Source: an uncultured Acidobacteriota bacterium (GTDB lineage: Bacteria; Acidobacteriota; Thermoanaerobaculia; Multivoradales; UBA5704). From it: DNA of 64,000 nt. The stretch spans positions 4,864,001-4,928,000 of the forward strand of contig OY969474.1 in assembly GCA_963700145.1 (NCBI GenBank). The letters are read 5' to 3'. Positions 12,504-16,278 of this stretch are shown here, piece after piece. The position numbers and the translations under genes were made by a program. The number at the start of each line of letters is the position of its first letter. Position 1 is the first letter of the stretch. The notes under the pieces were generated by a model. That model had not been told where the DNA came from and searched no databases. It was given only the letters and a program-made list of their open reading frames with translations.

Positions 12504-12776
12504 CTAGTACTCCGTCATCGTGTCGTCGGGGTAGCAGTAGAGCCAGCGCTCTTCGGGCTCGGCGGAGGCGATCACCGGGTGGCCGGAGAGGTGGGCGTGG
12601 CGGGTGGCGTGGCGGTTGGGGGAGGCGTCGCAGCAGAGGGTGGCGGCGCAGGTCTGGCAGGTGCGGAGGTGGACCCAGGGGTCGCCGGTCTTGATGCACT
12701 CCTCGCAGACGCGCCGCCGGGGCCACTTGATCTGCTCGACGCTCGCCAGGTGCTCGCAGACCGCCAGCGGGTCCAT
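12504..12776 (-). CDS. UBP-type zinc finger protein
   Basis: CEHL, CEEC, WVHLRTCQTC, CCDASPNRHATRH, WLYCYPD. Confidence 0.9.
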   Translation of the reverse strand: MDPLAVCEHLASVEQIKWPRRRVCEECIKTGDPWVHLRTCQTCAATLCCDASPNRHATRHAHLSGHPVIASAEPEERWLYCYPDDTMTEY

Positions 12777-12788
12777 CGCCCCCTCCGT

Positions 12789-13625
12789 TTAGGCCGTGCG
12801 CTCGACCGCGGCGAAGAAGCAATCGCCGAGCCACAGGCGGAGCCAGCTGCGCAGGACGGCGGGGTCGATCGGCTCCGGGACGTCGAGGGCGGCGAGGGCC
12901 TCGCCCAGGGTGCGCCGGCCGTCGAGGGCGGCGAGGAGGGCGTGCTGGTCGGTGAAGAGGGGGTGGAAGCGCACCCGGTAGTCGCGGCGGCTGACGGCGA
13001 GCGGGGTGGCGCGCGGGGCGGGGAGCGCGGGCGCTTCTCCGCGGTGGACGGCGGCGACGTAGTCGTGCACCGGGAAGTCGAAGCGGTAGAGCCGCAGGCA
13101 GGGCGCCGGAACGAAGCGGGCGGCGAGCAGGGCGGCCCGCGGCAGGGCGAGGATCTCCGCCGCGGGCCCCGGCGCCCCCTCCAGGCCGGGGCCGTCGTAG
13201 ACCTCCTGGCATGCCAGCTCGAGGGTGGCGAGCTCGACCAGGAGGTCGGCCCAGGGGGCGCGCTCCGCCGCCGGCCAGTCGGCGTCCGGGCGCGTGGCCG
13301 CGAGGTAGCCGGGGAAGGCGTCGGCCAGGCGCCCCAGGGTGTAGCCCGACGGCGGATGGCGGGCGAGATAGTCGGCGGCGAAGCGGTCGAAGAGCGGCTC
13401 GCCCAGGGCGTGCCGCAGCGCCGGGAAGACGGCGCGCAGGCACTCCAGGAGGCGCGCCTGGTAGGAGCGCTGGTAGATGCCGAGCCGCTCGGCGGCGGTC
13501 TGGGTCGCCGAGGCGGTGAGGACGCCGGCGGTGTCGGGCCCCGGCGGGCCGTCCGGCCGGGTGATCGCCGCCTGCAGCCAGCGCTGCCGCCGCGCCAGCT
13601 CGGGCGCCGGCTCCGGCTCGGTCAC
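12789..13625 (-). CDS. DUF2063 family MNIO partner protein (BufC/HvfC-like)
   Basis: [42 protein letters not shown] overlap with DUF692 gene. Confidence 0.85.
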
Positions 13626-14557
13626 CCGAGCTCCGGCGCGACGAGGTGGGGCGGGTTGGAGAGCGGGAAGCCTGGCGCGCCGGACGCCGCGGCCCCGTCC
13701 ACCGCGCCGTCCCCATCCACCGCCGGCACCGCCGCCCCGCGCGCCCAGTCCCGCGCCTTCAGCACCTCGGCGTGGAGCACCGGGAAGGGCGGGATCCTGG
13801 CGTCCCACTCGAGCAGCGTCGCCACCCCGCGCGTCCTACCGTAGGCCAGCCGGTAGAGCTCCCAGACGCGGTCGACGACCGCGCCGTCGTGGGTGTCCAC
13901 GAGGTGGGTGCCGCAGTGCGTGTGGCCGGCGAGGTGGAACTGCACGATGCGCTCGGCCGGCACCGCCGCGACGTAGACCCGCGGGTCGAAGCCGTGGTTG
14001 ACGCTCGAGACGTAGACGTTGTTGACGTCGAGGAGCAGGCCGCAGCCGGTCTCCTCGCTCATGGCGCGCAGGAACTCCCACTCCGCGAGCGTGTCGGAGG
14101 TGAAGCTGACGTAGGTGCTCGGGTTCTCGAGCACCAGCGGCCGCTCCAGGAAGTCCTGCACCGTGCGGATGCGCCCGACGACGTGGCGCAGGGACTCCTC
14201 GTCGAGCGGCATCGGCAGGAGGTCGTGGGTGGTGCGGCCGAGGACGCCGGTCCAGCAGAGGTGGTCGGAGACCCAGGCCGGCCGCACGGCGGCGGCGAGG
14301 GTCTTGAGCTTGCCGAGGTAGGCGAAGTCGAGCGGGTCGCTGCTGCCGATCGAGAGCGACACGCCGTGCATGACCACCGGGTAGCGCTCGGCGATGCGGT
14401 CGAGCACCCAGCGCGGCCGGCCGGCCGAGTCGATGAAGTTCTCGGAGATGACCTCGAACCAGTCGACCGCCGGCCAGTGCTCGAGGATGTGGTCGAAGTG
14501 GATGTTGCGCAGCCCGACGCCGAAGCCGAGGTCGGGCAGGCCCAGCCGGTGCTCCAC
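13622..14557 (-). CDS. DUF692 multinuclear non-heme iron oxidative enzyme (MNIO)
   Basis: [57 protein letters not shown]. Confidence 0.95.
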
Positions 14558-14568
14558 GATCGCCGGCC

Positions 14569-16278
14569 CTAGCTCGGCGGCAGGACGAGCCGCAGGTTGG
14601 TCGGGGCGGCGGGCGGCTTCGCGTCGGGGTACGTCACCGCGAAGATCTTCCAGGCCGTGTCCCAGACGTTGTCGCCGGCCTTGAAAGTGATGCTCTCGTA
14701 CGTCCACTGCGTGCTGGGGTCCTTGGAGTTGAAGACCTGCGCCACCGGGATCGGCGCGCCGCAGCCGCCATTGCTTTGAGCGGTATTGACGCTCGGGAAG
14801 CTGCTCGGCGGGCTGGGGTAGCCGCAACCGCCCTGCTGACTGCAACTGTTGGCCCCGCTGCAGGTGTGGATGATCGCGTTGGCGCACGTGTTCTGGCCCG
14901 GAGCGTCGGGAGCGAGGCCCTGGCAGGCGTGGGGCGGGCGCCCGGGGTAGGGGAGGCCGCCCGTGGTGTCGACCCGCTTGAAGGCCGGCACGCCGTGGGC
15001 CGCCCAGACCGCGGCGACGCGGGTGTAGAGCGCCTGCATCGCGGCGTAGGGGAAGAGGTCGTCGGCGTCGATGTCGGTGCCCTGGCGGTTGCGCCACCGC
15101 GGGTCCTTCCAGCTCGCCTCGATCGCCAGCAGCAGGCTGCTGTAGCTCTGGTTGAGCGCGTCGTTGATCTGGCCGGCGGTCGCGGGGTCGTTGAGCGCGG
15201 CGGCGCGCTGCGCGGCGAACTGCTTGGTCGCCGCGTCGACGTGGTCGGGGTCGGTCACCAGGTCCTGCCACGTCCACCCGGCCGCGCCGCGCACCTGCCA
15301 CCACTGCGGCCAGGTCTCGATCTCGGGCAGCCAGAGCACGACCTGCTGGAAGCGCTCGAAGTGGCCGAGCTGGTCCCAGAGGTGGCGGACCGCCGCGTCG
15401 TCGGCATTGTAATCGGCCTTCATGCTCTCCTCGGACGGCACGTACTTGTCGTCCACCGGCAGGGTGCCGACGTCCGCGTCGCGCCCTTCGCCCTGCTCGG
15501 TGATCGCCGCGATCATCGTGTCGGCGATCTTTCGCGCGTCGGCCGCCGGCACCCCCAGCGGGAAGAAGACGTCGAACCCCGGGTACTCCTCGTCGGGGTG
15601 CCACTCGTCGGGGTCGGTGAAGTTGAAGAGGTCGATCTGGATCGACTGCGGGTCGTAGACCTTCTCCCAGAGGGTGACGGCGCCGCCGGCGCCCGGGTAG
15701 GTGAGGTCGAAGTACTCCTGGATGCACTCGTAGAGGTGGCCGATGGTGCCGAAGACCGGCAGCGGGTCGCCCGTCTTCCAGCCGGCGAACGGCACCGCGG
15801 GCCGCTTCGTCGGGCTGTCCCAGTCGGGGTTCTCGATCGCCAGGAAGAGGCGCACCTGGTTACGGTCGACCGGCCCGAGCACGACGCGGACATCCTCGTA
15901 GCCGGGCATGTCCTTGAGGTCGCCGATGCAGGGGACGGTGGTGCCGTCGTAGGTGGGCGCGTTCATCTTCGGCGCCACGCCCATCGCGCTCGCCAGGTTG
16001 CCGGCGAGCTGCAGGTGGAGCATCTCCTGCACGTAGACCGAGAAGATGGTGTTGTAGGCGAGCTGGTTGAAGGTGACGACGGTGGCGAACGGCCGCAGCC
16101 CCGGCCAGAGGTTCGGCCCCGGCGAGGGCGCGGCGTAGGTGCCCTGGAGGGAGTAGAGGGCCGTCATGTAGAGCGGGATCGTGAACAGCTCCACGTCCAC
16201 CGCCGACTGGATCAGCGCGTGGAGGGCGGCGGTGTCGGTCGGCAGGTCTTCGGGACAGCGGGTCGGGGTCGGGCTCAT
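14569..16278 (-). CDS. VioB-type ferritin-like domain protein with C-terminal Cys/Gly-rich precursor-like region
   Basis: [53 protein letters not shown]; tail [31 protein letters not shown]. Confidence 0.85.

Follow-up and report, generated by a model that had tools for sequence, protein, structure and literature searches.

A 64,000-nt stretch of contig OY969474.1 from an uncultured Acidobacteriota bacterium, UBA5704 (assembly GCA_963700145.1, positions 4,864,001–4,928,000 of the forward strand; hereafter the window), carries four minus-strand genes packed head to tail, with gaps of 11, −4, and 12 nt: a gene encoding a ferritin-like protein (hereafter FER), a gene encoding a DUF692 enzyme of the MNIO family, a gene encoding a DUF2063 protein with a domain resembling a recognition element (RRE) for peptides that are made on the ribosome and modified after translation (RiPPs), and a gene encoding a zf-UBP protein (Table 1). 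The start codon of the DUF2063 gene overlaps the stop codon of the MNIO gene by 4 nt (GTGA). Our subject is the relation of FER to the MNIO and to the DUF2063 protein, referred to below as the partner. An earlier note on this DNA, made from the letters of the sequence, had listed the four genes with their coordinates, gaps, and domain assignments, all of which are correct. It had also reported no small stand-alone precursor gene nearby, and the layout agrees: there is no room for a small open reading frame (ORF) inside the operon, and the upstream neighbor of FER, at 16363–17100, lies divergently on the opposite strand.

An AlphaFold2 model of FER, computed with a 68-row alignment, has a mean predicted local distance difference test score (pLDDT) of 89 and a predicted template modeling score (pTM) of 0.92. 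The model comprises a confident helical core (residues 1–440), a coil with pLDDT of 60–71 (residues 441–510), and a hairpin and helix with pLDDT of 82–90 (residues 511–569). The core contains a ferritin-like domain, PF12902. In particular, E30, E85 and H88 (in an E85-x-x-H88 motif), E149, E264, and H306 are invariant in an alignment of 68 sequences and, judged by their ferritin-like pattern, are putative di-metal ligands; calling FER an enzyme is an assumption. The sole significant PDB relative of the core is 3hl1 (CC_0557), found by sequence (E 1.7e-22) and matched by fold as well (E 1.3e-10; template modeling score, TM, 0.77, normalized to the target). Members of the FER subfamily score 81–102 bits against PF12902, versus 120–227 bits for paralogs without the C-terminal module described below, indicating that FER belongs to a divergent subfamily. 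The label "VioB-like" given in the earlier note holds for the shared Pfam domain, PF12902, and for nothing beyond it. In two genomes, of Chromobacterium and Janthinobacterium, PF12902 also matches open frames of 1015–1055 aa beside FER (G266, locus L079; G268, locus L074). We take this to be the size of VioB, which would explain the label through the shared domain only.

FER is predicted to be cytoplasmic, because no start codon further upstream is possible and the N-terminus has no hydrophobic core. Specifically, the ATG at 16278 is the first start codon past the upstream stop, and a crude hydrophobicity test (maximum Kyte–Doolittle value, window 12, over the 28 residues that precede the first conserved helix) gives 1.28 and no sign of a signal peptide. 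The same N-terminal maximum has a median of 1.21 in the FER family, where 1 of 110 sequences reaches 2.0, versus a median of 2.27 in 28 DUF2282 controls that bear signal peptides, where 26 of 28 reach 2.0. The absence of a signal peptide had been noted before and is upheld by this comparison.

The C-terminal segment of FER forms a module of ~130 residues that contains the Cys-rich stretch, a β-hairpin, and a helix. The earlier note had counted six cysteines within 14760–14931; we find them (C452, C465, C473, C479, C485, and C506) encoded at 14761–14925. It had taken the Cys-rich segment for the end of the protein, which it is not: the Cys-rich stretch is followed by 63 conserved residues that make up the β-hairpin, the helix, and the terminal sequence LRLVLPPS. 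In alignments of the module, H450, C452, Q453, H471, C473, N477, C479, G483-G484-C485-G486, G504-G505-C506, and P509 never vary, and at least 90% of the aligned sequences keep C465. The Cys segment is the sole lower-confidence coil in an otherwise confident model, which fits an accessible loop. The linker between core and module is variable and rich in Pro and Gly, with no conserved cleavage motif in the alignment.

Table 1. Positions of the genes and sequence features of the FER locus, in window coordinates
Feature	Position	Strand	Description
FER	16278 (ATG) to 14571-14569 (TAG)	-	569 aa; ferritin-like, with C-terminal bufferin-like module
PF12902 ferritin-like domain of FER, residues 23-313	15340..16212	-	100.9 bits, cut-off 22.3; helical core to ~residue 440
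Bufferin-like module of FER, residues 436-569	14572..14973	-	Cys-rich loop, β-hairpin (524-533), helix (538-549)
Cys-rich segment of FER, residues 450-509	14752..14931	-	H450-A-C452-Q-G ... N-T-C465-A ... H471-T-C473 ... N477-S-C479 ... G-G-C485-G ... G-G-C506-G-A-P509
Terminal motif LRLVLPPS of FER, residues 562-569	14572..14595	-	conserved in relatives
MNIO (DUF692, BufB-type)	14557 (GTG) to 13624-13622 (TGA)	-	311 aa; 11 nt past FER
DUF2063 + RRE-like partner (BufC / PME-type 1 type)	13625 (GTG) to 12791-12789 (TAA)	-	278 aa
zf-UBP protein	12776 (ATG) to 12504	-	90 aa; 12-nt gap after DUF2063; PF02148 43.6 bits
Promoter-like site TGGTCA-17-TATACT	16341..16369	-	upstream of FER start; 9/12 consensus positions; consensus match only
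21-nt tandem repeat array	12225..12424		9.5 copies, 74% matches; between zf-UBP gene and next gene, downstream of operon

Conservation of the cassette

A word-indexed protein search returned 554 relatives of FER; all 120 of the matches listed are near full length, each with 6–12 cysteines in its last 190 residues. A scan of one genome per species yielded 312 stretches that encode a FER relative, and the locus counts that follow cover the best 80 of these 312. The 80 loci span Acidobacteriota (Thermoanaerobaculia and Sulfidibacter), Alpha-, Beta-, and Gammaproteobacteria, Bacteroidota, Actinomycetota, and Myxococcota. Searches with the four window proteins (tblastn) revealed the order FER, MNIO, DUF2063 on one strand in 78 of the 80 loci and in all 78 that are informative, since the two exceptions (L056 and L064) have a contig edge inside or just past FER. 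The recurrence of this order in several phyla indicates that it is not due to chance. The distance from the FER stop codon to the first aligned MNIO residue is 5–231 nt across loci, and, where the called partner start looks reliable, the partner ORF mostly begins 4 or 8 nt before the MNIO ORF ends. The terminal motif is conserved likewise: 72 loci passed a motif filter, and each of the 70 ORFs among them that are complete has [LIV]R[LIVTM][VAI][LFM]PPS, or the same motif extended to PPST, at its end (the eight loci that failed the filter stand outside this count).

Clustering of all ORFs of at least 70 aa, with shadow ORFs discounted, did not reveal a further gene conserved in more than 12 of the 80 loci. 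In particular, no protease, exporter, or transporter gene is conserved beside the cassette, and DoxX (BufD), sigma, and anti-sigma genes are not among the gene families common to more than 12 of the 80 loci (no dedicated DoxX profile search was made). Ten representatives of the minor neighbor clusters belong to unrelated housekeeping and regulatory families, such as ABC, LysR, SDR, and glutaminyl cyclase. Only one locus, that of the closest relative (L001), also has the zf-UBP gene. Because no other family is common to more than 12 loci and zf-UBP is found in just one, the conserved unit is three genes: FER, MNIO, and partner.

The zf-UBP gene had been proposed as a member of the operon. In the window it is tightly packed and probably co-transcribed with the cassette; its single recurrence makes it a lineage-specific passenger outside the conserved cassette. 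Being small, encoded in the same operon, and furnished with nine cysteines, the zf-UBP protein could be thought to be the real MNIO substrate in this organism. We rejected it on its presence in 1 of 80 loci, against the presence of FER in all; moreover, its gene sits after the partner gene rather than before the MNIO gene, and its Cys/His pattern fits an ordinary zf-UBP zinc finger (PF02148), so that it is extremely improbable as the substrate.

The converse comparison started from PF12902 loci other than FER. Searches (tblastn) of 200 other genomes of the phylum found no MNIO in the 1.5-kb flanks of 19 such loci (0 of 19) and no match to the module either. In three FER-bearing genomes, 8 of 10 PF12902 places gave a result: an MNIO gene lies immediately downstream in both places with a module and in none of the six without. 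In the two comparisons together, module-less PF12902 paralogs have an MNIO neighbor in 0 of 25 loci.

The genome that contains the window (5.46 Mb, a single contig) encodes one MNIO and one PF12902 gene, and the module profile matches FER only. A search of this genome for a DUF2282 precursor gave nothing over the cut-off (best PF10048 E value 0.7). The corresponding search with NF050166, the model for BufA2, gave a best E value of 0.6 with an internal stop codon, a weak negative for small Cys-rich proteins, because the same search was silent in its control, the Caulobacter vibrioides genome, which is reported to encode BufA2 (PMC11626156). A canonical precursor elsewhere in the genome, named beforehand as a possible true substrate, was thus not detected, with the weakness just given for its BufA2 part.

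The Cys-rich module, the MNIO, and the partner

Profile comparison (hhalign) of the module with BufA2-like sequences gave a score of 80.9 (probability 98.1%, E 7.8e-14, 64 columns); the highest score in 100 column shuffles was 25.4. The BufA2-like set comprises four sequences that match NF050166 at E values of 6e-9 to 6e-12, below the equivalog cut-off. Comparison with 27 DUF2282 cores gave a score of 24.4 (probability 65%) over 19 columns, GxNxCA...H[ST]CxG, which none of 100 column shuffles reached (maximum 18.7). The region aligned with DUF2282 contains both central cysteines of BufA1, to which C465 and C473 align. The resemblance of the FER tail to bufferin-type precursors, proposed earlier from its Cys and Gly pattern, is supported by the partly seeded BufA2-like match (98.1% probability). 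A search of the ESM Atlas with the module returned no usable match.

A search of 1.84 billion representative proteins with the module profile yielded 223 clusters (E up to 0.001, 50% identity), and simple motif filters sorted the best 150 of these 223 into four classes: 77 with a ferritin-like N-terminal domain; 23 fragments with the end of that domain; 41 others, mostly short fragments; and nine that filter as stand-alone modules, two of which, P0160 and P0213, look fragmentary. The filter placed P0233 and P0261, likewise genuine small module proteins, among the others. The small module proteins are 120–240 aa long and have no ferritin domain. One, P0257 (235 aa), is a stand-alone module that carries a twin-arginine (Tat) signal at its N-terminus (TIGR01409, 22.9 bits), so module relatives exist with Sec, Tat, or no export signal.

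The stand-alone form led to 12 metagenome loci (L136–L147). In L141, a stand-alone module ORF lies directly upstream of an MNIO gene; in L140, a module cut by the contig start is followed by MNIO and DUF2063 genes; in L137, L138, and L142, divergent ferritin-like fusions are followed by an MNIO gene; and in L139 (3939–6104), a 722-aa open frame encodes a ferritin-like domain and two tandem modules with an Ala/Thr-rich linker between them, with MNIO and DUF2063 genes next. In addition, L143 encodes a BufA2-like protein with a signal peptide, followed by an MNIO gene, and L147 encodes a BufA2-like protein with no MNIO gene within 5 kb; L136 and L144–L146 are too short for a neighborhood call. 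The loci with a stand-alone module indicate that the MNIO keeps company with the module rather than with the ferritin-like domain.

These stand-alone forms, some with Tat or Sec signals, and the variable Pro/Gly-rich linker that joins module to core would suit a role of the ferritin-like domain as a giant leader or scaffold, in the manner of enzyme-derived RiPP leaders, from which the modified module is cleaved and then released or exported as a bufferin-like metallophore. We consider such a role quite improbable. The lack of a conserved protease or transporter gene next to the cassette argues against cleavage, and the linker contains no conserved cleavage motif; moreover, the ferritin-like domain shows no variation in its putative metal ligands, and AlphaFold2 places the C-terminal hairpin and helix confidently in one globular unit with the core (pTM 0.92).

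The window MNIO matches PF05114 (354.9 bits, E 3e-106) and passes the cut-off of the NCBIfam equivalog model MNIO_BufB (NF050167; 352.4 bits, cut-off 310). BufB is the best match for all 35 cassette MNIOs that were scanned. The window partner matches PF09836 at 70 bits, and all ten partners scanned from other loci carry this family's signature. The AlphaFold2 model of the partner (pLDDT 92) comprises an N-terminal helical domain and a C-terminal β/α domain. Foldseek matched it to 8hi7_A, a TglHI entry (E 9e-7), and to 3dee, NGO1945 (E 6e-5), both of which are named as structures of MNIO partners in a survey of the family (PMC12452194); a sequence search of the PDB with the DUF2063 alignment gave no match at E up to 0.01.

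A quick maximum-likelihood tree of 111 MNIOs places 27 DUF2282-linked enzymes on one side of a branch with a Shimodaira–Hasegawa-like approximate likelihood ratio test (SH-aLRT) value of 100; the other side comprises 79 FER-linked MNIOs, three linked to divergent fusions, one linked to a stand-alone module, and one linked to a BufA2-like protein. Within the FER-linked group the phyla are interleaved (e.g. Actinomycetota and Bacteroidota inside proteobacterial groups), which suggests that the cassette has spread horizontally.

Prediction of a three-chain complex of MNIO, partner, and module gave an interface score (ipSAE) of 0.55 (0.53, 0.55, and 0.71 in individual runs), versus 0.34 for the best of three controls; the runs share at least 17% of contacts, and partner pLDDT is at least 36. 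In calibration, the mark was attained in 58 of the 80 complexes with a solved structure and in 2 of the 110 mismatched pairs; at ipSAE of 0.60 or under, where the present value lies, only 7 of the 80 solved complexes passed and both passing mismatches are also found. The suggestion that the tail be modeled on the MNIO–DUF2063 complex has thus yielded a score above control and weak support for an MNIO–partner–module assembly.

Proposed maturation of FER

We propose, with a probability that we put at roughly 0.7, that the FER locus is a bufferin-type maturation cassette whose precursor is the full-sized, predicted cytoplasmic FER instead of a small exported peptide. The parts of this proposal differ in strength. 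FER is probably the MNIO substrate, occupying the slot of bufA; conversion of its cysteines to 5-thiooxazoles is somewhat more likely than not; and copper as the metal, together with any physiological role of the matured protein, is tentative. The earlier note had the MNIO and DUF2063 proteins act on the Cys part of a large protein without a signal peptide, and this is supported in silico by synteny, homology, the stand-alone form, the converse comparison, and the window genome itself; the check that it had suggested, whether the Cys tail occurs only with an adjacent DUF692 gene, gave an MNIO gene in 78 of 78 informative loci and in none of the 25 module-less PF12902 loci.

The proposed pathway would start from FER as a fusion of the ~440-residue PF12902 helical domain, with its six putative di-metal ligands, to a ~130-residue module related to BufA2. 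The DUF2063/RRE partner would dock on the module, perhaps through the hairpin and helix or through the terminal [LI]R..PPS motif, and would present the flexible Cys-rich loop to the BufB-type MNIO. The MNIO would then use O2 to turn target cysteines into 5-thiooxazoles, each conversion making the protein 4 Da lighter. The foremost candidate sites are C465 and C473, which align with the two central cysteines of BufA1; C452, C479, C485, and C506 would perhaps also be modified, as reported for Buf2, or else be structural. In BufA1, the two central cysteines become 5-thiooxazoles and the signal peptide is dispensable for modification (PMC11626156). The mass lost per Cys is reported to be equal in Buf2 and Buf1 (PMC12452194), so more of the six FER cysteines may be modified. 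The matured module would stay attached to FER, since the cassette has no conserved protease or exporter, and the outcome would be a ferritin-like metalloprotein inside the cell with a site that binds a soft metal, most likely copper, at high affinity.

Several observations weigh against this proposal. DUF2063 (PME-type 1) partners go with precursors that have Sec signal peptides (PMC12452194), and FER, having none, breaks the rule. The FER cysteines could instead be plain metal or Fe–S ligands. The window module has no direct match in Pfam or NCBIfam at E values up to 10, the curated models of BufA1 (PF10048) and BufA2 (NF050166) included, and its stand-alone relatives match BufA2 far below the cut-off; in 7 of 9 this weak match is the sole one in NCBIfam (E 1e-4 to 0.16). 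The score of 80.9 is partly seeded, since the pattern used to collect the BufA2-like set, H[AV]CQGLNA, is also present in the module; the alignment itself reaches well past the seeded first motif. In the complex prediction, partner pLDDT is below 50, and replacing the MNIO with an unrelated protein still gives the module 0.34. Finally, the neighborhood evidence comes from the best 80 of 312 genome loci only, and the own-genome search for BufA2, silent in its control, is a weak negative.

Some of the same observations would suit a different assignment, in which FER serves the cluster as a diiron enzyme in a tailoring or accessory role, its cysteines are structural or bind metal (Zn, Fe–S) in the ordinary way, and the MNIO acts on an unrecognized substrate encoded elsewhere. 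With six invariant putative metal ligands FER looks like a working metalloprotein, its module misses the curated BufA models, and the survey cautions that the ORF upstream of an MNIO gene may encode an enzyme and not a precursor (PMC12452194). We nevertheless regard this assignment as improbable. Against it stand a cassette with no other conserved gene, intergenic gaps too small for a peptide gene in the window and in most loci, and a genome with a single MNIO and no other copy of the module or of DUF2282; in addition, the module is profile-homologous to BufA2-like precursors, and in L141 it precedes an MNIO gene with no ferritin domain attached.

A bolder form of the proposal that FER is the substrate, which we hold to be rather unlikely, is that the MNIO and its partner make no metallophore and instead furnish a ferritin-like di-metal protein inside the cell with Cys-derived thiooxazole ligands, a cofactor that stems from the protein itself, creating a hybrid metal site (e.g. 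copper beside a diiron or dimanganese center) with a catalytic or redox function or a function in cytoplasmic metal storage. If so, this would be the first RiPP-type machinery to mature an enzyme-sized cytoplasmic metalloprotein.

MNIO enzymes mature small, mostly exported peptides, such as methanobactins, bufferins, and oxazolins, and to our knowledge their action on real proteins has so far been a matter of speculation in the field. The FER cassette is compact (three genes), widespread, and directly testable, and its candidate substrate, a ferritin-like protein of ~60 kDa, is soluble and has no signal for export; the carriers include culturable, genetically tractable hosts (Caulobacter, Janthinobacterium, Chromobacterium, and Myxococcus). 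If modification of FER is confirmed, thiooxazole-type ligands would be installed post-translationally on an intracellular metalloprotein, DUF2063 partners would no longer be tied to Sec signal peptides as reported, the PF12902 subfamily would gain a first functional handle, and roles of bufferin chemistry in metal handling would be indicated for the cytoplasm, not just for the periplasm.

The DNA around the cassette has features of its own. Two promoter-like sites were observed in 12000–16500, versus 0.1 expected from shuffles, and the 21-nt repeat array downstream of the operon holds three terminator-like sites (hairpin plus T-run) on the minus strand. The G+C content is 69–78% across the cassette and its right-hand neighbors (12500–19500), versus 60–66% at 8000–12500 and beyond 21000; this contrast may be a sign of acquired DNA, with which the patchy spread across phyla fits. 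Further ORFs were read by eye. Just past the divergent gene, an ORF at 17139–18644 on the plus strand starts much as a signal peptide does, and its first ~200 residues contain five loops of the EF-hand-like form D-x-[ND]-x-DG. Between the cassette and the left flank lie several small ORFs (9900–12090), including short overlapping ORFs at 10862–11460 (minus strand) and a 209-aa ORF at 11457–12086 (minus strand) that looks like a helix-turn-helix and nucleotidyltransferase pair.

Comparison with known systems

The closest known systems are the Buf2 clusters (bufA2-bufB2-bufC2) of Caulobacter vibrioides and relatives, which resemble the FER cassette in having a BufB-type MNIO, a DUF2063/RRE partner, and the same gene order; the order bufA-bufB-bufC is described as strictly conserved (PMC12452194). 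The FER module aligns with BufA2-like sequences over 64 columns, HxCQGL ... CA..A.HxCxGxNxC..GGC ... NxC..GGC.xP (98% probability), and the cassette MNIOs group in the quick tree with the one BufA2-like-linked MNIO, apart from the DUF2282-linked enzymes. Notable differences include the lack of a Sec signal peptide in FER; a length of 550–800 aa for FER-type precursors, with a ~440-residue ferritin-like domain in front, versus 51–367 aa for Buf2 precursors (PMC12452194); the additional C-terminal hairpin and helix and the terminal PPS(T) motif of the FER module; and the lack of any match of the window module to NF050166.

Buf1 (BufA1, DUF2282) of C. vibrioides, for which thiooxazoles have been shown experimentally, has the same GxNxCA...H[ST]CxG pattern around its central cysteines and the same kind of enzyme pair. 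It aligns with the FER module over 19 columns only (65% probability); Buf1 is small and periplasmic, its clusters usually contain DoxX and sigma/anti-sigma genes, which the FER cassette is without (a statement made with no dedicated DoxX search), and the DUF2282-linked MNIOs form a separate branch (SH-aLRT 100).

Published bufferin fusions (MerC|Buf1, MerC|Buf2, Buf1|Cytochrom_C|FGE-sulfatase, and Buf_EGKCG|EF-hand; PMC12452194) likewise join a bufferin-type domain to another metal-related domain. In the MerC fusions the bufferin domain is on the periplasmic side, according to the legend (PMC12452194), unlike the predicted cytoplasmic FER. None of the listed fusions has a ferritin-like domain, and "ferritin" and "PF12902" occur 0 times in the main text of the survey (PMC12452194). 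The same survey proposes TIGR04222 proteins and very long Buf_EGKCG/oxazolin proteins as protein-sized MNIO substrates, and the idea is the same as here, namely modification of a Cys-rich, C-proximal segment; TIGR04222 proteins differ in being membrane proteins, whereas FER is soluble, predicted to be cytoplasmic, and accompanied by a PME-type 1 partner. CC_0557 (3hl1; PF12902, function unknown), the sole solved relative of the FER core, has a chain of 317 aa with no Cys module. Identity of FER with the adjamnio-1 family was considered and set aside as probably wrong: adjamnio-1, whose representative is from a Massilia, and adjamnio-2 have PME-type 2 partners with no DUF2063 signature (PMC12452194), and the ten partners that we scanned, one of them from Massilia, carry that signature.

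A literature search found no description that joins ferritin-like proteins or PF12902 with MNIO, DUF692, DUF2063, bufferin, or thiooxazole, though the family may be listed in supplements to the survey (PMC12452194). Overall, the cassette appears to work like a Buf2 cluster, sharing its enzyme type, its partner type, and its gene order. Because FER has no signal peptide and misses the curated precursor signatures, we file the cassette outside bufferin membership, as a variant. The in silico evidence supports a reading of the FER cassette as a bufferin/MNIO variant that is new and widespread and has a cytoplasmic ferritin-like protein as its substrate.

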